Assembly: GCA_001189215.1 (NCBI GenBank)
Contig: LFCR01000002.1
Span: forward strand, 10,677 to 74,676
Source of the DNA: Parcubacteria bacterium C7867-008
Lineage (GTDB): Bacteria; Patescibacteriota; Minisyncoccia; Phycocordibacterales; Phycocordibacteraceae
Length of the DNA stretch: 64,000 nucleotides
Reading direction: 5' to 3'
This document shows, piece after piece, positions 3,533-60,395 of this stretch. Within the stretch, counting starts at the first letter, position 1. Each line of letters begins with the position of its first letter. The position numbers and the translations under genes are program-made. Below the pieces are notes generated by a model that saw nothing but the letters and a program-made list of their open reading frames with translations, ran no database searches and was not told the DNA's origin.

Positions 3533-3850
3533 TTACGAGAGTGTCGTGTTGCTCTTCTTTGCTACACGAACCATCTTTCCGTCTTCCTTAGTACGAGCAA
3601 TGCGAGTTCCCTTCTTGCTCTTAGGATCGAGGAACATAACGTTAGATGCATCAATAGCACGTGGACGCTCAACGATAGAGCCAGACTGCTGTCCGCCGCG
3701 ACCACCCTTGAGGTGACGCTTTACGAGTGCAACACCGTCAATAACCACCTGACCAGTTGCAGGAAGTGCACGAGTGATAGTGCCAGTACGGCCCTTATCC
3801 TTTCCTGATACTACGATCACCTGATCTCCTTTTTTGAGTTTCATCTTCAT
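3533..3850 (-). CDS. rplX: 50S ribosomal protein L24
   Basis: KLKKGDQVIVVSGKDKGRTGTI KOW motif. Confidence 0.9.
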   Translation of the reverse strand: MKMKLKKGDQVIVVSGKDKGRTGTITRALPATGQVVIDGVALVKRHLKGGRGGQQSGSIVERPRAIDASNVMFLDPKSKKGTRIARTKEDGKMVRVAKKSNTTLS

Positions 3851-6481: not shown

Positions 6482-6502
6482 AAAAACCCGCGCAAGCGCG
6501 AG
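6482..6502 (-). promoter_or_regulatory. GC hairpin plus U-tract (minus-strand cucgcg-cuug-cgcggg-uuuuu) about 10 nt upstream of the rpsS ATG; terminator or attenuator-like leader element
   Basis: plus strand AAAAACCCGCGCAAGCGCGAG; near-identical AAAAACCCGCGC element also precedes rpsL (20948-20966). Confidence 0.4.
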
Positions 6503-6593
6503 ATAGGTAAAATCTATATGAAACTAAGTGTCAAATTTAGGGGGTCGTGGTAGGGTCGTAGCAGGAAGCACCATGACATGAGGGGTTTGCGAA

Positions 6594-6971
6594 ATGTCCG
6601 GAGGGCACGGGAATATCATCCAATTTGAGCTGAAACTTGAATTAGAGGGGAAAATATCGCTTGGCACATACCGAGTCTATGACAACCAGGGTAATGCCTT
6701 TACAACCCTTTTCCTGAGCCTGAGAAGGGATGGCTGGGTTCTGTCTACAGAAAGCCTCAGGAAGCTGTTGCTCGTTCTGCTCACGCACACACGAGTCTCG
6801 CTTAATGAAGTGGTGGTTGATGCTTTGTGTTACTACCGCAAGTTGAGCTACGCCGAGAAGGCAGCTCTTGGTGGCGCGATTGATTCAGGCACCGGAATCA
6901 AATTCTATGTGTACGACGGTTGTGATCTATACAGCAACACTCCAGGCGCCTGCATCGCAAGTTTGATGTAA
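6594..6971 (+). CDS. hypothetical 125-aa protein
   Basis: ORF with GAGGGG Shine-Dalgarno 7 nt upstream of the ATG; opposite strand to the ribosomal operon. Confidence 0.4.
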   Translation: MSGGHGNIIQFELKLELEGKISLGTYRVYDNQGNAFTTLFLSLRRDGWVLSTESLRKLLLVLLTHTRVSLNEVVVDALCYYRKLSYAEKAALGGAIDSGTGIKFYVYDGCDLYSNTPGACIASLM

Positions 6972-7049
6972 ATACTAGCCAAGGAGCACGAATGGGGTCT
7001 TGCGGAAACGCAGGACCCTTCCGTTTTTTCTCATGATGCGGAGCTATAC

Positions 7050-7886
7050 TTGGAACATATGGAATATACAGAAATGAATAACAAGCATAAGGCACTGATC
7101 GGTGTAGGAGCCCTTGTACTTATCTTTCTTATCTTTGCTATCTGGTACATGGCTACCCATCAAGCTCCTGCTCCTGTTGGGCCTGTTATAGCAACCTCCA
7201 CTCCAGTGACCACAAGCAGCAGTACACAGACCATTACTGATAACAGCCAATATTACGAGATCAAAGCGACTTATCCTGCTTCTACCCTTCTCAAACAAAC
7301 AACTAGTGAACGAGCCGATACTGAAGCGGTATCCATAATGAAAACATTCGTTGAACAGGAAATCGCTCGATTTAAAGACAATGGAAACTTTGCCAACTTA
7401 ACTCAAGAGGATATCCAGATACAGGGTCTGGGAAATGGCCGCAAATACACTCTCGATGCTGAGTATCAGACATACCAAGGAAAACACACGGTCTCCTACG
7501 TATATACGATAAACCTCGATACCCTTGGAGCACACGGAAACAGCTATTACCGGGTATTCACCTTCGATACTGCAGCAGGCCAGAGTCTTGAGCTGGATGA
7601 CCTCTTTGTCTCAAACAGTGGGTACCTGGAGAAACTCAGTAACATTAGTCGTGTTGATCTACCTGGTGTCATTAGTGCTAAGTTTGGTGAGAGTCCAGAC
7701 ATGGAAGATATTAAGAGTGGTACTACTGCAGACGCTGAAAACTTCCAGAGTTGGTACATAGAAGGTACAAACCTTGTACTTATATTTCCTCCCTATCAGG
7801 TTGGTCCTTACACAATTGGAACCACACTCCTCCCTATTCAACTTTCTCGTCTAGGTGACATGCTTAAAGCAACCTACGTTCCCTAA
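7050..7886 (+). CDS. membrane-anchored DUF4163/DUF3298-like (RsiV/PdaC-type) protein
   Basis: N-terminal TM helix (ALIGVGALVLIFLIFAIWY), Ser/Thr linker, then a two-domain body resembling anti-sigma-V RsiV-like proteins; TTG start with GGAG 6 nt upstream (alternative ATGs at 7059 and 7074). Confidence 0.55.
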   Translation: MEHMEYTEMNNKHKALIGVGALVLIFLIFAIWYMATHQAPAPVGPVIATSTPVTTSSSTQTITDNSQYYEIKATYPASTLLKQTTSERADTEAVSIMKTFVEQEIARFKDNGNFANLTQEDIQIQGLGNGRKYTLDAEYQTYQGKHTVSYVYTINLDTLGAHGNSYYRVFTFDTAAGQSLELDDLFVSNSGYLEKLSNISRVDLPGVISAKFGESPDMEDIKSGTTADAENFQSWYIEGTNLVLIFPPYQVGPYTIGTTLLPIQLSRLGDMLKATYVP

Positions 7887-7969
7887 CTACACCTTCTTCA
7901 ACCGCACCAGTTCTACGAGCGTTGCCTGCACGTTCAGAACGAGGCTCTGTGTGTTGAGAACTATCTTCT

Positions 7970-8215
7970 CTAGAGAGAGAGAAACCTGTCTTCCAGTTTC
8001 TTGAATCTTAGATCAACTTTATCGAACCGTTGATCGATCTGAATGAACCCCTGGTCAATCTTTGAGAATCTTTCATCCACATGCTCGCGAAGAGCATCTA
8101 TACGATCATCAGAGATATCACATCGATCATGTAACGACACAATCTGATCCATTACGTCATAAAGTGTTGGTTCTGTCGTATCAGTCTGAATAACGGATTC
8201 GATTGTGTGTGGCAT
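7970..8215 (-). CDS. hypothetical 81-aa coiled-coil protein with 11-residue RF-x-K-x-D repeats
   Basis: ERFSKIDQGF/IQIDQRFDKVD/LRFKKLEDRFL periodic repeats. Confidence 0.4.
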   Translation of the reverse strand: MPHTIESVIQTDTTEPTLYDVMDQIVSLHDRCDISDDRIDALREHVDERFSKIDQGFIQIDQRFDKVDLRFKKLEDRFLSL

Positions 8216-8276
8216 ACAGATTGCATTAGTGGTGAGTACCTATTAAGGCTAGCAACCTATGCTCATAAACAACGAA

Positions 8277-8301
8277 GAAACCCGTCCACAGGACGGGTTT
8301 C
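8277..8301 (-). terminator. intrinsic terminator after rplB (11-bp stem gaaacccgtcc/ggacgggtttc, loop aca, followed by a modest U-rich run on the minus strand)
   Basis: perfect inverted repeat 27 nt downstream of the rplB stop. Confidence 0.6.
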
Positions 8302-8327
8302 TTCTAAAGGAAAACTTTATATCTTCC

Positions 8328-9173
8328 TTAGCTGCGCTTCTTTCCAACCTTACGGCGAGAAACAATAAATACGTTTGAGTATTTCTTCGGTGTACGAGTC
8401 TTCTGACCCTTACCGGTTGGCTTGCCCCACATGCTCTTAGCACGGCGGAGACCACGACCCTGCTTGCCTTCACCACCTCCGTGTGGGTGATCAACTGGGT
8501 TCATGGCGGTACCACGAACCGTAGGACGAATACCGAGCCAGCGGCTGCGACCTGCCTTACCAATATTTACAAGGCGACTGTTCTCGTTACCAACTGCGCC
8601 AATGGATGCGTAGCAGAGATCAGATACCTTACGAATCTCGCTTGAAGGAAGCTTGACCTGAGCGTATCCAGCATCATGTGCAACGATCTCAGCATAGTTA
8701 CCTGCAGAGCGTACGAGACGTGCTCCTGCACCAACTTTAAGTTCGATGTTGTAGATGAAGGTACCAGATGGGATCTTACCGATCGGCACGCGGTTACCAG
8801 CTTTGATAGGCGCATTCTCTCCAACAATGAATGTATCTCCAACCTTGGTGTCCTTGGGAGCAAGCACATAGCGACGCTCACCATCTGCGTAGAGAGCAAT
8901 AGAGATGAATGCGGTGCGATATGGATCGTACTCAATAGTCTCGATGCGAGCTGGAATATCCTTCTTATTGTATGAGAAATCAATCTCACGGTAGCGACGC
9001 TTGTGTCCACCACCCTGATGACGAGTGGTGATGCGTCCAGCATTGTTGCGACCAGCCTGGCGCTTCTTTGAAGAAAGAAGGCTCTTTGTTGGTTTGTCAC
9101 CAGAAAGAAGCTTCTTGTACGGAAGCGTCGTCATGCTGCGACGGCTTGGGGATGTTGGCTTGTAGGTCTTCAT
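8328..9173 (-). CDS. rplB: 50S ribosomal protein L2
   Basis: ...GRNNAGRITTRHQGGGHKRRYR...NPVDHPHGGGEGK... Confidence 0.95.
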   Translation of the reverse strand: MKTYKPTSPSRRSMTTLPYKKLLSGDKPTKSLLSSKKRQAGRNNAGRITTRHQGGGHKRRYREIDFSYNKKDIPARIETIEYDPYRTAFISIALYADGERRYVLAPKDTKVGDTFIVGENAPIKAGNRVPIGKIPSGTFIYNIELKVGAGARLVRSAGNYAEIVAHDAGYAQVKLPSSEIRKVSDLCYASIGAVGNENSRLVNIGKAGRSRWLGIRPTVRGTAMNPVDHPHGGGEGKQGRGLRRAKSMWGKPTGKGQKTRTPKKYSNVFIVSRRKVGKKRS

Positions 9174-9193
9174 AAATAAGTGCTTACTCGATA

Positions 9194-9556
9194 CTAGAAT
9201 TCAATGGAGTCACCCTTCGCAAGGTACACATACGCCTTGTGACGACGTGCACGGGTACCAGTGCCACGGCGAGTGCGGAGTGAGACAGACTTCGCAGGAA
9301 GATTCGTGACGTTCACCTTACGTGGTGTTACGTTGTAGACCTTCTCAATAGCAGCGGCAACCTCCAGTTTCGATGCATCAGCAGGAATCTGGAATACATA
9401 CACACCGTTGCCAGAAGAAAGAAGCGCCTTCTCTGAGAGCCATGGTGCAACAAGGACGTTCGCAAGACGGCCATCATCGTTCTTCGATACCGGCTGCTTT
9501 GAGCGGACCGATTCCTTCTTAGACTTCTTCTTGGTGTCAGATGAGAAAAGAGGCAT
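9194..9556 (-). CDS. rplW: 50S ribosomal protein L23 with Lys-rich N-terminal extension
   Basis: LLSSGNGVYVFQIPADASKLEVAAAIEKVYNVTPRKVNVTN... L23 core. Confidence 0.85.
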   Translation of the reverse strand: MPLFSSDTKKKSKKESVRSKQPVSKNDDGRLANVLVAPWLSEKALLSSGNGVYVFQIPADASKLEVAAAIEKVYNVTPRKVNVTNLPAKSVSLRTRRGTGTRARRHKAYVYLAKGDSIEF

Positions 9557-9566
9557 ACGAGTAGAG

Positions 9567-10328
9567 TTACTTTGCGAGACGTGTTGCGAGTACCTGAAGT
9601 GATTCTTCAGGACGCTCGATCACGAGGAACTTTTTATTCATGAGGTCGACCGGATTGAGGTTACGCACCTCTTCCGTCATGAGGCTGCCGATGTTGCGGA
9701 ATGAACGAGCAGCCACAGTGTCCTTCGAAGCGAAGGCAACGATTGCTGCATTCTTACGCTTAGTTACGAGTGTTGGCTGTCCTGCACCGTTCGCAATTGC
9801 TACAAGCATTGCCTTTGCATCCTTGGTCTTTGGTGTAGAGAACTCAAGCTTATCAACGAAGATGATTTCACCATCCTTCCACTTGCGTGAGAGTACGGTT
9901 GCGAGTGCTGCCACACGCATCTTCTTGTTGATCTTCACTGAGTAATCTTTCTCAGCACGTGGGCCATGAGTCACACCTCCACCCTTCCAGATTGGAGAAC
10001 GGTTAGATCCGTGACGTGCACGTCCAGTTCCCTTTTGCTTCCATGGCTTCTTACCACCACCAGATACTTCACCGCGGAATTTAGTGTGTGCAACGGTAGG
10101 ACGAGCATTAGCCTGCATACCGATAACAACCTGGTGTACGAGGTCTGCATTCCACTTCTTGCCGAAGAGCTCTTCAGGAAGTGTGATGGTACTTCCCTTT
10201 GCACCTCCTGCAGTCCAGATAGTAGCTTCCATGCTCACGGTCTTCTTAGACGCAGCAGCGACTGGAGCGGTCTTTGCGACTGCCTTCTTTGCTGGTGCTT
10301 TCTTGGTTGTTGCTTTGGTAGTAGCCAT
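9567..10328 (-). CDS. rplD: 50S ribosomal protein L4 with Lys/Ala-rich N-terminal extension
   Basis: ...KPWKQKGTGRARHGSNRSPIWKGGGVTHGP... L4 signature. Confidence 0.9.
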   Translation of the reverse strand: MATTKATTKKAPAKKAVAKTAPVAAASKKTVSMEATIWTAGGAKGSTITLPEELFGKKWNADLVHQVVIGMQANARPTVAHTKFRGEVSGGGKKPWKQKGTGRARHGSNRSPIWKGGGVTHGPRAEKDYSVKINKKMRVAALATVLSRKWKDGEIIFVDKLEFSTPKTKDAKAMLVAIANGAGQPTLVTKRKNAAIVAFASKDTVAARSFRNIGSLMTEEVRNLNPVDLMNKKFLVIERPEESLQVLATRLAK

Positions 10329-10339
10329 ACGTATGAAAA

Positions 10340-10957
10340 TTATGCAGAGATGATCTCTACGAGGGAGCCACGTGCTCCGGGGATAGCGCCAGAGATGATG
10401 ATCTCACCCTTAGCAGCATCCACGTGAAGCACCTTAAGGCTTGGCACCGTGACGCGATCACCACCCATGCGTCCACCCATGCGCATACCCTTAGCTACAC
10501 GACCGCCAGCGCGACCACCGCCACCGATAGAACCTACTTCACGCTCAGAGTGCTTCTGACCGTGTGAACGACGACCTCCCTTGAAGCCGTAGCGCTGCAC
10601 ACCGCCTGCAAATCCCTTACCCTTGCTGGTTCCAGCGATGGTAACTCCATCCCCTACAGCGAATGAATCGAGAGTAATCTCACTACCAACCGTGAAGTCT
10701 GCAGGATTCTCAACACGGAACTCTTTGATAACCTTGAACGCCTTTCCCTTGGTGTGGCCAAGTACTGCTTTAGAAACGCGGCTTTCCTTCTGATCGTCGA
10801 ACGCAACCTGGATGGCATTGTATCCATCAGCACCATCCGCAGTCTTAACCTGCGTAACGGTAAGTGGGGTCGTCTTGAGGACGGTACCAGCCTTAACATC
10901 CCCATTCTCCTGGAAGATTTGGGTCATGCGCTCTTTGCGTGCGAGAAGGAATTTCAT
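10340..10957 (-). CDS. rplC: 50S ribosomal protein L3
   Basis: ...FKGGRRSHGQKHSEREVGSIGGGGRAGGRVAKGMRMGGRMGGDRVTV... Confidence 0.95.
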   Translation of the reverse strand: MKFLLARKERMTQIFQENGDVKAGTVLKTTPLTVTQVKTADGADGYNAIQVAFDDQKESRVSKAVLGHTKGKAFKVIKEFRVENPADFTVGSEITLDSFAVGDGVTIAGTSKGKGFAGGVQRYGFKGGRRSHGQKHSEREVGSIGGGGRAGGRVAKGMRMGGRMGGDRVTVPSLKVLHVDAAKGEIIISGAIPGARGSLVEIISA

Positions 10958-11140
10958 GTAAAAAGTGAAAACGCGCCCTATTGAAAGTGTCTGTGGGAAT
11001 TCGGGGCGATCCGTTCACCTGGATCTTCCCTGTGCCTGACGGGGCCAGCAACGATCCCTTCAATGGCGCCCTGCCAGATGGAGGCGAGATCAAGCCCGTT
11101 CTCTGCTAGACGATGAGTCTGGCACCTGACACGCAAATAC

Positions 11141-11180
11141 GGTCCCGGTAGCGCAAGCTGCCGGGACTTTGCTTTATATA
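11141..11180 (+). terminator. 12-bp hairpin capped by a GCAA (GNRA) tetraloop followed by UUUGCUUUAUAU on the plus strand; terminator-like element in the rpsJ-rplC spacer
   Basis: GGTCCCGGTAGC-GCAA-GCTGCCGGGACT then TTTGCTTTATATAAA; no plus-strand CDS upstream. Confidence 0.4.
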
Positions 11181-11373
11181 AACAGATAGACCACCCCCAA
11201 GGGAGTAGTCCATACGGCAGCTTATTAATTGACTCGAGTCCCCCAAGGAGAACAGGTCAAAATGATGAGATTTAATCTCCGAAGCTACTCCAGCACTATA
11301 CATAGGAGGCACTAAAGAATGCATGAAGAGAGGTCGGTCCCGCAGGTCCGACCTCTTCTCACAGTAAGAAACA

Positions 11374-11751
11374 TCAGCCTCTGGGAATTTCAAGCGCAGC
11401 CGTCTTGATGAACGCGTCGCTGACCGCAAATAGACCACCACCTAGATCATAGATAAAGAATTCCCCTTCTCCTGAGCTGAATCCTTCTCTGAGAAACAGG
11501 AGCCCATCGAACATGGTTTCCGGAACCCAGTCCTGGAACAGGTAATATCCAATGAGCTGATCTTTGGTGAAAGAAACCCAGTAGTTGAGGTACTGGAAGA
11601 ACTTCACCAAACGCCCCGCTGAGAGTCGCGCGGTTTCACTACCCACCTGACCACATAAGGAACCGTCTGGACGTGTCCTGATGACAGCGGGACGGATTGG
11701 GAACGTTGCCTTTGCAGGCTCTTCACATACGATGCATATTGGGCTATTCAT
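11374..11751 (-). CDS. hypothetical 125-aa protein (C-terminal FIYDLGGGLFAVSD motif)
   Basis: ORF in the rpsJ-rplC spacer, same strand as the operon; motif loosely resembles SMI1/KNR4 (SUKH) GGG motif. Confidence 0.3.
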   Translation of the reverse strand: MNSPICIVCEEPAKATFPIRPAVIRTRPDGSLCGQVGSETARLSAGRLVKFFQYLNYWVSFTKDQLIGYYLFQDWVPETMFDGLLFLREGFSSGEGEFFIYDLGGGLFAVSDAFIKTAALEIPRG

Positions 11752-11848
11752 TCAAGTACCTTTCCAAAACAATCTATTTGGAACGTATCACGGGGCGAGA
11801 AAAAGAAAAGTGCGCCCATTGCTGGGTGCACTCATTCATGCGGACACA

Positions 11849-12118
11849 CTACAAGTACCCGCTCGCTTGCTGTGTGCTCATCTTCAGACGTCGTGCTAGC
11901 CCATAGTGCTGCCACTCAAGCCTGCGTAGCCATCCCGTTACTTGATCTTCGCCATTCATGCGGTCTTCGAATCCACCAAGACACGTCGGTCGATAGTCGC
12001 GCACAGCAGCAAGCTGAGCTCTTACTTCTACAATACTGCGATTAACTCTACGAAGGCTTGAGATGAGCTTGCGCCGCTTAAGTGCTCTGCGGAATCGTAA
12101 CCATCGTCTTATAGACAT
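11849..12118 (-). CDS. hypothetical small basic protein (89 aa, MSIRRWLRFRRALKRRK...)
   Basis: AGGAAA Shine-Dalgarno 8 nt before ATG 12118; lies directly after the rpsJ terminator. Confidence 0.4.
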   Translation of the reverse strand: MSIRRWLRFRRALKRRKLISSLRRVNRSIVEVRAQLAAVRDYRPTCLGGFEDRMNGEDQVTGWLRRLEWQHYGLARRLKMSTQQASGYL

Positions 12119-12164
12119 GTTGGGTTTCCTTTCTGGAAGAACCATATCAGGTATGACAAAAAGA

Positions 12165-12193
12165 AAAAGCTCGGCGGTATGCCGAGCTTTTTC
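12165..12193. terminator. bidirectional intrinsic terminator directly after rpsJ (aaaaagctcggc/gccgagcttttt, loop ggtat)
   Basis: perfect 12-bp A/T-flanked palindrome 20 nt past the rpsJ stop. Confidence 0.65.
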
Positions 12194-12211
12194 TTTAGTC
12201 TGTTCTTTCGA

Positions 12212-12565
12212 TTAGACCATCTTCACGTCGATGGTAACACCAGACGGAAGGTTGAGGTTCGTAAGCGCTTCGATGACCTTCGCGTTTGGCGAGAGGATAT
12301 CGATGAGACGCTTATGAATGCGCATCTCGAACTGCTCGCGTGCATCTTTGTGGACGAACGTAGAGCGGTTAACGGTCCAGCGCTTGATCTCAGTTGGAAG
12401 CGGTACCGGGCCCACAATCTTCGCATCGAAGCGATTTGCGGTATCCATGATCTGCTTCACCGAGAGGTCGAGGATCTTATGCTCGTACGCACGCACGCGG
12501 ATGCGAAGCTTTGGCTCAGCACCAGGTGCTGCCTCGGTCTTCTTTGCTTTGGTAGCGGTAGCCAT
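12212..12565 (-). CDS. rpsJ: 30S ribosomal protein S10 with N-terminal Ala/Lys-rich extension
   Basis: ...LRIRVRAYEHKILDLSVKQIMDTA...PNAKVIEALTNLNLPSGVTIDVKMV. Confidence 0.9.
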   Translation of the reverse strand: MATATKAKKTEAAPGAEPKLRIRVRAYEHKILDLSVKQIMDTANRFDAKIVGPVPLPTEIKRWTVNRSTFVHKDAREQFEMRIHKRLIDILSPNAKVIEALTNLNLPSGVTIDVKMV

Positions 12566-12588
12566 ACGAGTAAGGATCTAGAGGGCTA

Positions 12589-13791
<1,203 letters not shown>

Positions 13792-14016
13792 AGAATTTGT
13801 AAGTTACTGGTAGGTAAAAATAATTTGCCGCCGCGCCTGCCTGCGCCTTACAAAAGGCAGACAGGCGACCAAGGCTCCGGCGATACCCGCGCAGCGCCTT
13901 CCAGCCACCCCTGCCCCGTTATGGAGAGGAATATCGAAAAGAGCGCCGATCTCGCGTTATGTATAAAGTACCGGAGGCAGAATTAAAGGTCAAGCAATGA
14001 GCTCCTTGCCCGGTTC

Positions 14017-16326
14017 TTAAGTATGGTTGAATAGGCTCAAAAGCCACGTAAACGGAAAGAGGAGATAGTGAATCAGCTGACTGAAGAATTCTCCCGCGCC
14101 TGAAGCAAATACCGCCGCAAGACGCGTCTCCTTAGGCTGGGGTGCGAATGCTGAAGGTCGCGTTCCGCCACCCACACCTGCACCAGTCCCAGTTAGAACG
14201 GATCCCGACTTGGCTGAGAAATCGTATGAATTGCCGGATGGATCGAAGCTGGCATAGGCCGCAACGTTATCCGGTACCACAATGTCGTTTACTTCCGGGG
14301 TTGAACCTTCATTGATAAATCCTCGTGCGGAATTGTTGGACATCACTACGTTAGAAGGGATTGGGTCAGATGCCGTCCTTCGCTTGACCGCTATCCATGT
14401 CGCTCTTCCATTGTCGGTATAGTTTACCGCCGTATTGTGGTCTATAACGCTATCTTTTACGTTGTACCAAGAGAGACCGTGCCACACCGACGTTATGACC
14501 ACATTATTACTTATCGTAAAGTTTATCAGTGGGCCATCAAATGATGCGATTCCCTGCATGCCACCTATAAGCGGCCGATTTGGATCAGTAGTCTCCTGCA
14601 CCCAGTTGTGGTCGATTACCACGTTACTAAATACGGCTCCATTCGTGAATACTTGGATACCATCGTCATGATTAGGATCACCCTGTGACTGATCCACATA
14701 CTCATCAAGGATGGTGTTATTGGAGACAATCATATCAGAACCATTCGGCACGATTCCATCTGCTGAGAAATTCTGAATGACGTTGTCCTTGATTATTCCT
14801 TTTACACTGTTCGCAGGTGCTGTGCCTCCACTGACGCCCGTATTCATGCCGATGCCGCCACGAACATTCTTTATGTGGTTGCGAAGTATAGATAGACACG
14901 GCCCTCCCTTAAGAGTCACGCCGCTTCTTGTACCATTCATCCATTTGTCTACACTCCAACCGGAACTGTTTTTCGCTGTATAGAAATTACCATCTGCGAT
15001 TATGATGTTTGAAACATTGCCACCATAAACCATCACGCCACTTGGAGTAGCTATTGAAGTCATCTCAGGCTTCGTTACAATCCATTTCTTTGCATCATAA
15101 AACTCTAAGCCATCCATGATCGCACCGCTCTCGAACTCTATCCAGAACCATGCGGTCGGATTGTTATATGGTGCTACATTCGCGCTAATCTTCGCTTTTG
15201 GATGATTGCCTGACATAAGCACAATATGATCTCCGGGTTTAACTACTCGTGCTGCCATCATTGCATTCAGCGTTTTGAAAGGACGCACTCTTGTTCCATC
15301 CCCGGTATCTAGTCCAACCACTGGATCAACATAAAGGGTACGTAGATAATTCCTGTCTGGCGCTTCGCATCCTGAATACACTTGGTATGAACCTGAGAGT
15401 GTGGATGGGGCAGGAGGAGGGGTTGGAGTTGGTACCGGCGTTGGGGTAGGGGTAGGGGTTGGCGTGGGAGTTGGTGTCGGTACAGGTGTAGGAGTGGGTG
15501 TAGGAGTTGGGGTCGGAGTAGGGCTTGGAGCAGGGGTAGGCGCCGGAGTGGGAGTTGATGTAGGAGTGGGAGTACCAACACGGGTAGTAATTTCTACTGT
15601 CTTACTAGTACTCCCTCCTGTGCCCTTACACGTAATACCGTAGACTGTATTTTTGCTTATAGATATATCTGCAGAACCATTTGTTTTGTATCCAGCATCA
15701 AAGCCTGCCCCCACACATGACGTTGCTCTATCAGTCTTCCAAGAAAGAGTTACGGTTGATCCAACCAGCACATTTGTTTGATTTGCAGTAAAGGTAACTG
15801 TGGGTCCAGAAGAAGTGGTGGGTGTTTGAGAAGTAGCTACCGGTGTGACAGTTGGAGTTTCAGTTGGCTTTGTACTTCCAGAACCCTTGGGTGCGCTTGG
15901 AGTTGCTATAGCGACTGGTTCCTCTTTCACTACTGGGCTAATGCCAGATACTGGAATGAGCGAAGGCACATCCCGCAGCAGTTCATATTCTTTTAGCGTA
16001 TCTGTAACAGCTACTGGTTCACCTTTTATTGCTGGTACCGCAATACGCGTTACAAGACCATACGCACCTGGAGCAGATATGAGTAATACGAGTATAAGAA
16101 ATATTTGAAAGAATGATCCCTTCGAATTAGTTTTGCTGGGCACAAAAGATTGATGTATACCCGATGGCACTGCGAATGAAGATTTCTGCAACGCAATAAT
16201 TGCAAGCGCACCATGTATATCTTCCGCGGAATACCCTTTTGCAGTGAAGTCCTTCAGCATCTTCTCTTCACTTTCTCCAAGTTGGTGTCTATTGGATAGA
16301 AGTGCCAGAAGTTCTTTGTCTGCCAT
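14017..16326 (-). CDS. membrane-anchored surface protein: cytoplasmic N-terminus, one TM helix, Pro/Thr-rich linker, right-handed parallel beta-helix (pectate-lyase-like) domain
   Basis: [23 protein letters not shown]; (TP)n linker; repeated beta-helix rungs [61 protein letters not shown]; ORF track start 16344 is GTG, first ATG at 16326. Confidence 0.65.
15400..15560. repeat. tandem low-complexity repeat encoding the (Thr-Pro)n linker of the surface protein
   Basis: repeated GTTGG/GTAGG hexamer-like units; reverse strand gives a spurious [12 protein letters not shown]. Confidence 0.7.
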
Positions 16327-60297: not shown

Positions 60298-60324
60298 TTA
60301 CCGTAACGCACTGTAGTAAATTTG

Positions 60325-60395
60325 TGCGGGATAGGAGAATCGAACTCCTGTCTGCTCTTTGGAAGAGAGCCATTTTACCATTAAACTAATCCCGC
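60325..60395 (-). tRNA. tRNA-Gly (anticodon UCC); no encoded CCA
   Basis: revcomp GCGGGAT TA ... GCTCT-CTTCCAA-AGAGC ... AGGAG-TTCGATT-CTCCT-ATCCCGC-A folds as a cloverleaf with 7-bp acceptor stem, U33, TTCGATT T-loop. Confidence 0.85.

Follow-up and report, generated by a model that had tools for sequence, protein, structure and literature searches.

Genes and candidate regulatory RNAs at a probable gene-capture site between rpsJ and rplC in a clade of Parcubacteria

Why should the genes of ribosomal proteins S10 and L3 lie more than a kilobase apart? The S10-spc cluster is a textbook example of extreme gene-order conservation and provides the backbone of phylogenomic marker sets. Here, we analyzed its S10-L3 junction in the ultra-small bacterium Parcubacteria bacterium C7867-008, within a 64,000-nucleotide stretch of contig LFCR01000002.1 (the window, to which all positions refer unless another locus is named). 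In it, rpsJ (12212 to 12565, an open reading frame [ORF] of 117 amino acids [aa]) is the last gene of a tuf-rpsJ unit, with the tuf ORF (13791 to 12589) as its upstream neighbor, while rplC (10340 to 10957, 205 aa) is the first gene of a unit that continues with rplD, rplW, and rplB, all of them on the minus strand. Between the two units, there is a spacer of 1,254 bp (10958 to 12211). The identity of both flanking genes is supported by homologues, those of rpsJ being the S10 proteins of other Parcubacteria loci (62 to 97% identity by tblastn). The genome is a bin from a groundwater metagenome of the Hanford site, and in the text of the paper describing it, the term “ribosomal protein” does not occur and “operon” appears only in connection with the type IV pilus (PMC4508563). 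A full-text literature search found no paper with such an rpsJ-rplC arrangement.

An assembly artefact was ruled out by an independent contig of the Logan assembly (L166, 984 bp), which was 100% identical to positions 12217 to 11234 and therefore extends past either end of the strain-specific segment described below. We then determined how far apart the S10 and L3 genes are in the L3 neighborhoods collected from 80 species genomes and 80 metagenome contigs. Loci whose L3 was at least 67% identical to that of the window, and whose contig contained the two genes, were considered members of the same clade (13 cases including the window). All 13 had a gap between rpsJ and rplC (219 to at least 3,272 bp), while in more distant Parcubacteria the gap was mostly 8 to about 220 bp, with few exceptions. 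Thus, the abnormal interruption of this junction, to which a preliminary description of the DNA made from its letters had drawn attention, was borne out both by the length of the spacer and by the comparison with relatives. Given that all 13 members are gapped, that the content of the gaps differs, and that a sister genome lacks 856 bp of the spacer, we propose a clade-wide break of the operon with a fast turnover of the genes that it carries (here, the cargo). The spacer is probably such a break, serving as a permissive site of gene capture and bearing separate expression signals for rplC. What the sequences show directly is the anatomy of the locus, its presence or absence in relatives, the constraint on its DNA, the families to which the proteins belong, and their predicted folds.

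The sister genome, C7867-007 (locus L005), has an L3 and an S10 that are 96% and 97% identical to those of the window, and its rpsJ-rplC spacer measures 405 bp. Homology with the window ends at 12188 and restarts at 11331, the flanks being 91 to 100% identical, so that an 856-bp segment (11332 to 12187) containing the genes orf89 and orf125 together with their hairpins is absent from C7867-007. The G+C content of this segment is like that of its surroundings, and both ends of the indel fall in hairpins. No recombinase was found among the ORFs of 9000 to 14500, no repeats flank the segment, and the only tRNA of the window is located at 60324 to 60395. Other members of the clade carry different genes in the gap: a short-chain dehydrogenase (SDR) and a 109-aa ORF in UBA6241 (L003), a weakly matching helix-turn-helix (HTH) protein in L002, membrane proteins in L001 and L004, and a GNAT acetyltransferase in L087. 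One unnamed protein family was common to the gaps of L004 (1353 to 1856), L087 (831 to 1448), and L088 (1907 to 2455), indicating that some of the cargo is older than the turnover at the strain level. All three members of this family contain AHPEH, and those of L087 and L088 also share LIAVDMG...RSNNPHA.

The larger of the two cargo genes, orf125 (11374 to 11751, minus strand), encodes an acidic protein (isoelectric point [pI], 4.9) of 125 aa, which is an exact match to the GenBank hypothetical protein AB203_03460. It contains FIYDLGGGLFAVSD, and the 125-aa ORF with a GGG motif of the preliminary description is indeed found at 11751 to 11374. A word-indexed protein search returned only the protein itself, but an exhaustive HMMER scan of 1.84 billion representative proteins retrieved 36 with E values of <1e-3, nearly all of them of 110 to 160 aa. 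Relative to these homologues, orf125 is full length, and the family alignment has a conserved core (FGK.EVE.AAGRL..FFQ..G.W..FT..EL..FY...GW.P..MFFGL.G). The codon score (+0.12) was within the range of true frames in the window. An AlphaFold2 model built from the family alignment was confident (predicted local distance difference test [pLDDT], 89.4; predicted template modeling score, 0.84) and had the topology a1-b1-a2-a3-b2-b3 of the winged-helix type, with helices at residues 39 to 55, 63 to 72, and 77 to 88 and strands at 61 to 62, 100 to 104, and 107 to 111 according to DSSP. Fold searches against PDB and viral models gave weak matches (E values of about 0.2 to 3; template modeling [TM] scores of 0.3 to 0.4); the top ones in PDB (E values of 0.7 to 3; TM scores of 0.3 to 0.4) were uniformly winged-helix domains (Z-alpha, OmpR/PhoB, GntR, IclR, and Rpa2-WH), and the top viral matches listed were likewise winged-helix/HTH domains. 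A PDB sequence search with the family profile gave no match. Considering the 36 distant homologues, the confident fold, and the codon score together, we regard orf125 as a real gene, and the model makes its product a winged-helix-like protein of a small uncharacterized family. It shares with winged-helix proteins the predicted core but differs from them in its acidity, in belonging to no winged-HTH family by hidden Markov model (HMM), and in a would-be recognition helix that is hydrophobic and glycine rich (P..MFFGL.G), atypical for DNA reading.

The homologues of orf125 are found in unrelated contexts: between scpA and scpB, beside a tyrosine recombinase, and in a run of small unannotated ORFs. 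In the first case (L082, 5001 to 5471), the family member MBI2410017.1 of “Candidatus Kaiserbacteria” splits a usually adjacent gene pair. In the last (L168, 1 to 5305), the homologue lies within nine small ORFs, eight without a family match and one with a weak match to DUF2103, and the region looks like a mobile-element or phage-type region, judging by its ORFs. At another locus (L081), the tandem partner of the homologue was checked as a possible paralogue and is not one.

The second cargo gene, orf89 (ATG at 12118, stop at 11849; minus strand), encodes an 89-aa product with a pI of 11.7 and 21 K+R residues. An SD-like (Shine-Dalgarno) GAAAGG is located 9 nucleotides (nt) upstream of the ATG, confirming the highly basic, SD-preceded frame that had been described. 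Both cargo genes have GAAAGG 8 to 9 nt before the ATG (12119 to 12136 and 11752 to 11769) and rplC has no Shine-Dalgarno sequence, so that translation signals differ between the cargo genes and the ribosomal gene. A homologue of orf89 was detected in UBA6241 (L003, 6694 to 6966), a 90-aa ORF with 52% identity over 60 aa (E value, 9e-16) and with a common MSIRRW start, length, and LGG.EDRM core. It directly follows rplB, at another of the points where this ribosomal cluster is interrupted. A word-indexed search with orf89 returned only itself, a profile of the two proteins found no further members, leaving two known among 5.8 billion proteins, and the viral contigs searched contained no relatives. 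The AlphaFold2 model (pLDDT, 89) consisted of two long helices in an antiparallel hairpin, for which the fold search retrieved generic coiled-coil hairpins and nothing else. NCBI annotation omits orf89. Nevertheless, the homologue at another break of the cluster and the confident helical-hairpin model argue that orf89 is a real gene, close to an orphan. Since both known copies are inside ribosomal clusters, a ribosome-associated role is possible.

The spacer is rich in hairpins. In the region from 10300 to 12900, the terminator scan found six terminator-like sites, versus 1.8 ± 1.2 in shuffled sequences. A G+C-rich stem followed by a U-tract was found at 12160 to 12196, 11213 to 11186, and 11141 to 11168 by the scan and at 11831 to 11810 by eye, and termination is predicted at these sites. 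The first is the perfect bidirectional terminator already described shortly after rpsJ: it begins 15 nt past the stop codon, has 16-nt arms that are 100% complementary (a stem of 16 to 17 bp), and is flanked by an A-tract and a T-tract, so that it would act on both strands. In the sister, there is a terminator at the same position with another stem. That stem (CCACTCCCTAGGGAGTGG, 3619 to 3638 of L005) is nearly a copy of the terminator hairpin in the leader of the same locus (ACTCCCCTGGGAGTGGT, 3783 to 3799), while the rpsJ terminator of the window has an unrelated stem; hairpins may have recombined here and left this trace. Three minus-strand hairpins had been overlooked in the preliminary description. 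One follows orf89 (11797 to 11831; a 9-bp stem at 11831 to 11810 with a GCAA loop, then the U-tract TTTTCTTTTTCTC); a weak ctRNA-like Rfam match there (19.5 bits; E value, 0.53) reflects just the hairpin-plus-U shape. Another, found by the repeat search, follows orf125 (11324 to 11361; 17-nt arms, 82% complementary, with a 4-nt loop), and its 3' arm overlaps the −35-like box discussed below. The third, at 11213 to 11186, belongs to the upstream region of rplC. A short direct repeat had also been pointed out, at 11207 and 11436. The repeat exists (ATAGACCACC, extending to 19 nt at 84% identity), with its copies at 11186 to 11195 and 11430 to 11439 instead. Given that we estimate ca. 0.75 exact 10-mer repeats by chance in 1,254 bp and that the spacer holds several others of 10 to 11 nt, ATAGACCACC is within chance expectation; neither does it flank the strain-specific segment, and we discarded it as a scar of recombination or insertion. 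A genome-wide hairpin family was discarded as well, the core ACTCCC..GGGRGTGGT being limited to one occurrence in the window and two in L005.

Does the part of the spacer that is retained in the sister carry information of its own? As a neutral reference, we used the 4-fold sites of tuf, rpsJ, and rplC, which are 72 to 79% identical between the window and L005. Against this background, positions 11331 to 11135 were 91.4% identical (binomial P, 2e-9), and the 85 nt from 11300 to 11216 had only two substitutions. By this measure, 11331 to 11135 is constrained non-coding sequence, probably with a regulatory role. The block starts on the minus strand with a promoter-like box (ATGCAT-18 nt-TATAGT; 11295 to 11324), one of 15 such sites in the 64 kb. 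It is the counterpart of TTGCAT-17-TATAGT, found 113 to 134 nt upstream of rplC in relatives: the pattern matched the window, L002 to L004, and L019, and a looser version added L001, L086 to L088, L091, and L094. The box is followed by a predicted structured RNA domain (11216 to 11288), with a closing stem GUAGCUU/AAGCUGC and two inner hairpins. The minus-strand fold of the element had −36.7 kcal/mol (z, −2.3), versus −24.5 for the plus strand, and both substitutions in 11300 to 11216 fall in unpaired positions of the predicted fold.

Downstream of this domain, a terminator-like 12-bp hairpin (11176 to 11213, minus strand) consists of the stem at 11213 to 11186 and, in the scan, the U-rich tract CUGUUUAUAU; CTGTTTATAT follows the stem on the minus strand, the only strand on which its G.U pairs can form. 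In L005, a G-to-A change keeps a pair and a C-to-T change lengthens the U-tract, and all differences in the fold and the terminator are in loops or linkers, keep pairs, or lengthen the U-tract. This hairpin would be either an attenuator in the rplC leader or the 3' end of a small RNA of ca. 110 nt. After the A/T-rich TTTATATAAAG, there is a second 12-bp G+C-rich hairpin (11141 to 11168), GCAA capped and followed on the plus strand by TTGCTTTATA. The preliminary description had placed a GNRA-capped hairpin with a U-tract here, on the opposite strand; the hairpin is present, but its assignment to the plus strand is ambiguous. Two G.U pairs favor that strand in the window, while the copy in L005, with a changed loop and a Watson-Crick pair at the C.A/G.U position, is perfect on both strands. 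It could be a stem-loop at the 5' end of the rplC transcript or, on the plus strand, a terminator. Next comes an unconstrained stretch (10982 to 11134; 153 nt versus 121 nt in L005) with many indels and identity below the neutral level, and finally a U-rich start region of 24 nt (10958 to 10981) that is 100% identical to L005. The latter has no Shine-Dalgarno sequence before the AUG of rplC (TTTTCACTTTTTACATG, 10958 to 10975) and resembles the ...GCGCG-UUUUAUUUUUU-AUG end of the leader of the clade.

This clade leader is a different element. In 15 relatives, the promoter-like box is followed by a leader of ca. 95 nt that contains, in order, CGCUACGUAC, a variable hairpin closed by GUAC/GGAC, and CCAAUGG, in most cases a second variable hairpin, often tetraloop capped, and then a G+C hairpin whose U-tract runs up to the AUG, which gives the order P1-P2-P3 terminator-UUUU-AUG. 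A covariance model of it (R1) recovered the 15 relatives at 50 to 94 bits, at loci L001 (3905 to 4003), L002 (2843 to 2939), L003 (3901 to 4003), L004 (3910 to 4003), L019 (3889 to 4003), L086 (3404 to 3503), L087 (1504 to 1614), L088 (3393 to 3503), L089 (3386 to 3503), L091 (437 to 535), L092 (3395 to 3503), L093 (3391 to 3503), L094 (3404 to 3503), and L095 (359 to 461), among others. In its two modeled helices, 90.6% of cells were paired and five pairs changed on both sides; none of 500 shuffles reached the covariation score, and slide controls collapsed. R1 had no match in Rfam and is a candidate new ribosomal-protein leader. Among Kaiserbacteria-type loci, L025, L037, L131, L027, L033, and L049 had no rpsJ within 0.95 to 4 kb upstream of rplC, and three showed weak R1 matches of 26 to 27 bits (L025, 3914 to 4003; L037, 3896 to 3982; L131, 3396 to 3482). 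In view of these loci, S10 and L3 may be uncoupled in more lineages than those of the present clade.

Neither the window nor L005 matched R1 at E values of ≤1. A diverged form of the clade leader was rejected for the window, where the best score with filters off was 9 bits and only the promoter box GUAUAGUGC was aligned; the R1 words CGCUACGUAC and GGACCAAUGG are missing from its spacer and from that of the sister. The leader of these two genomes, of about 330 nt, agrees with that of the clade in position, in having a similar promoter-like box and a terminator-type hairpin ahead of rplC, and in the similarly U-rich region at its end. Apparently, the R1 motif is replaced in them by an element of their own, while the principle of a box plus a terminator-type structure is shared. 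No further copies of this element were found in the window or in 166 loci. At the gathering threshold, Rfam matched neither the window nor any of 13 related loci, and the permissive matches were unrelated, none being a ribosomal leader. Those around 12111 to 12273 (STnc50, Thr_leader, and others) just recognized the terminator hairpin. The window contains no rRNA.

A third open frame, orf111 (11106 to 11441, minus strand), overlaps orf125 and covers the regulatory region. The preliminary description had listed it as an ORF with a second motif, DYSLGGGLSVY. The frame and the motif are there, but the frame is broken in the sister by a 2-nt indel, the 17 substitutions in the stretch that both genomes share are not concentrated at third codon positions (4/8/6 at the first, second, and third), and the codon score (−0.24) is non-coding. 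For these reasons, orf111 is not a gene. It has no homologue and no family match (Pfam, NCBIfam, PHROG, and PADLOC), and its DYSLGGGLSVY is the translation of the terminator-like hairpin at 11213 to 11186.

The GGG motifs had suggested that orf125 and orf111 are immunity-type proteins of the SUKH (SMI1/KNR4) kind and the locus a possible remnant of a toxin-immunity system. The one point in favor is the local likeness of FIYDLGGGLFAVSD and DYSLGGGLSVY to the aromatic-D-GGG stretch of SUKH proteins. Pfam gave no match to SMI1_KNR4 or to any other family for the three ORFs (E values of ≤1) or for 35 members of the orf125 family (E values of ≤0.1). Searches of Pfam, NCBIfam, PHROGs, and PADLOC were equally without significant results for the three spacer ORFs and for three plus-strand ORFs. 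Moreover, the predicted fold of orf125 is winged-helix-like and not the alpha/beta fold of SUKH. Its GGG is unconserved in the family, being the turn of the wing beta-hairpin where homologues have DG, GG, or NG, and the bearer of the second GGG is non-coding. No toxin gene is nearby (the neighbors are rpsJ, orf89, and rplC), and homologues are found in unrelated contexts. The immunity-protein interpretation is thus rejected as extremely improbable. The DLGGGTFD phosphate-2 motif of Hsp70/actin-fold ATPases was also considered for orf125 and discarded; just residues 94 to 111 aligned to HscA models, with 9 to 10 bits (E value, 0.3).

How would such a locus be expressed? The tuf-rpsJ transcript would end at the strong bidirectional terminator. 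Low expression of orf89 and orf125 on the 856-bp segment would come from read-through or weak promoters, and the hairpins after each would insulate this cargo from the ribosomal genes. The L3-L4-L23-L2 unit would be transcribed from the box at 11324 to 11295 through a structured leader comprising, in order, the structured domain, the terminator-like hairpin, the 12-bp hairpin, the unconstrained stretch, and the U-rich start region; a predicted leader with a terminator (the fold and the hairpin at 11213 to 11186) is indeed located between the box and the first gene. By analogy with L4 control of the Escherichia coli S10 leader, the domain and the terminator probably form a transcription attenuator through which an encoded ribosomal protein would exert feedback. 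A mutually exclusive antiterminator, in which the 5' GGAGUAG pairs with the CUACUCC in the left arm of the terminator, was the favored nascent fold (−23.7 kcal/mol) only for transcripts initiated no further downstream than 11291; for one initiated at 11288 the closing stem is preferred, which makes this pairing speculation. We infer the start and stop points of transcription, the attenuator function, and any function of orf89 and orf125 from sequence and models.

Several observations weigh against the view of a capture site with separate rplC signals. A strict sigma-70 scan called no promoter in 10300 to 12900, the box at 11324 to 11295 included, and the promoter, the terminators, and the attenuator are predicted at the level of consensus features. 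The constrained element is known in two copies, those of the window and L005. R1 does not match the window, so that its leader is not demonstrably homologous in function to that of the clade. The proposed terminator lies ca. 220 nt upstream of rplC, with the unconstrained stretch in between, and for this reason an independent small RNA fits as well as an attenuator. As for the cargo, the codon score of orf89 is borderline (−0.10), no target-site duplications, integrase, or tRNA explain its arrival, and the 856-bp difference may be a gain here or a loss in the sister.

The main rival for the non-coding element is that 11300 to 11176 might be an independent small RNA gene of ca. 110 nt that has a promoter and an intrinsic terminator to itself, acting in trans or being itself cargo. 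We consider this possible, if doubtful, and give the same weight to its corollary that the A/T-rich TTTATATAAAG holds a second, weaker promoter for rplC, with the 12-bp hairpin as the 5' stem-loop of the mRNA of that gene. A promoter, a multi-branched fold, and a 12-bp terminator with its U-tract are packed closely together, constraint peaks from the −10 box to the terminator, the 150 unconstrained nucleotides downstream speak against one integrated leader, and TATAAA with a weak −35 sequence, TTGGGG, directly follows the terminator. However, the box corresponds to the one driving rplC in relatives, that second promoter is weak and was not called by the scan, and a small RNA gene finds no support in Rfam or in additional copies across the loci compared. 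Another reading concerns the ORFs, which might be decayed remnants or chance frames in a long non-coding leader. The codon scores of orf89 and orf111 at or below the non-coding 95th percentile, the self-matches of the word-indexed searches, and the omission of orf89 by NCBI would agree with this. Yet the description suits only orf111, since orf125 is full length relative to its homologues, with a confident fold and a coding score, and orf89 shares its start, length, and core with the protein of UBA6241. We hold it to be improbable. The decayed gene of the preliminary description accordingly fails for both cargo genes, while the regulatory RNA of the same alternative agrees with part of the spacer, which is cis-regulatory or RNA-like.

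The nature of the segment itself also has to be considered. It could be a small mobile, toxin-antitoxin, or defense cassette inserted in a hairpin-rich target, as a pair of genes, one basic and one acidic, present or absent between near-identical genomes with indel ends in hairpins would suggest, along with the orf125 homologues adjoining a tyrosine recombinase and in a run of small unannotated ORFs. There is, however, little likelihood of this, for PADLOC and PHROG gave no match, orf89 has no viral relatives, terminal repeats or a target duplication are absent, the two genes do not co-occur elsewhere, and G+C is like that of the surroundings. The last alternative is that the ribosome has a lineage-specific associated protein in orf89, and perhaps in orf125, placed here by co-expression and not merely by a permissive site. 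The small size and very basic character of orf89 fit this idea, as do its position on the strand of rpsJ, downstream of it and with an SD-like site, and the finding of both known members in a ribosomal cluster, one after rpsJ and the other after rplB. But a strong terminator separates it from rpsJ, it is absent from the site in the sister and from the same cluster in other members of the clade, it matches no ribosomal-protein family, helical hairpins are generic, and the homologues of orf125 are in unrelated contexts. Hence, placement by co-expression seems quite unlikely to us.

Preferring, then, a clade-wide break that works as a permissive capture site upstream of separate rplC signals, we note that the ribosomal cluster of the window has further breaks, between rplB and rpsS (L2|S19; 6496 to 8327) and between rplE and rpsN (L5|S14; 2429 to 2982), filled by non-ribosomal ORFs both in the window and in UBA6241. 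The L2|S19 gap contains an 81-aa ORF (8215 to 7970, minus strand), a 278-aa gene on the opposite strand (7050 to 7886) that resembles a DUF3298 gene at the same site of UBA6241, and a 125-aa ORF on the plus strand (6594 to 6971); ca. 560 bp of it (about 7086 to 6528) have no counterpart in L005. The L5|S14 gap contains a 116-aa ORF (2890 to 2540).

A bolder scheme would have the operon cut into separately regulated modules (tuf-S10 | L3-L4-L23-L2 | S19... | ...L5 | S14...), with the cuts as safe harbors that time and again capture small lineage-specific genes. In this scheme, orf89 would represent a new accessory protein associated with the ribosome, on the grounds that its only two known members are both in such cuts, and the rplC unit would be governed by undescribed leader RNAs, namely the covariation-supported motif of the relatives and, in the window, a replacement promoter-aptamer-terminator element sensing an encoded ribosomal protein. 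As a whole, we rate it as rather unlikely. Even so, the locus indicates that the S10-spc operon itself tolerates modularization in reduced genomes. Its breaks are defined sites at which ribosome-linked factors peculiar to a lineage could be sought in the Candidate Phyla Radiation, and it adds candidate ribosomal-protein leader RNAs for a phylum in which, to our knowledge, almost no regulation is known. It also calls for caution in annotation, orf111 being an artefact over a putative regulatory RNA while the small gene orf89 was missed.

The components of this locus (operon break, islet, intrinsic terminators, leader RNA, and winged-helix domain) are of known kinds. What is new is their position inside the S10-spc cluster, the clade-wide recurrence, the uncharacterized protein families, and leader RNAs missing from Rfam. 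In E. coli, L4 acts on the S10 leader by transcription attenuation and translational repression. That leader is likewise promoter proximal and structured, with a terminator-type hairpin before the genes of L3, L4, L23, and L2, but in the window the leader precedes rplC and not rpsJ, which belongs to the tuf unit; its element, with two known copies, has no sequence or structure match in Rfam, and regulation here is proposed by analogy. In cyanobacteria and plastids, rps10 is part of the str operon (tufA-rps10), apart from the rplC cluster. S10 is thus tied to tuf and uncoupled from L3 in both cases, while in the clade of the window the two units remain adjacent and their junction has become a variable islet whose cargo differs by relative. 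With integration hot spots and islets, finally, the locus has in common conserved flanks and a content that varies among close relatives. It differs from them in the lack of a tRNA, an integrase, or direct repeats, in its very small size (0.8 to 3 kb), and in its place inside a gene cluster that is among the most conserved in bacteria and that has at least two more breaks here, at L2|S19 and L5|S14.

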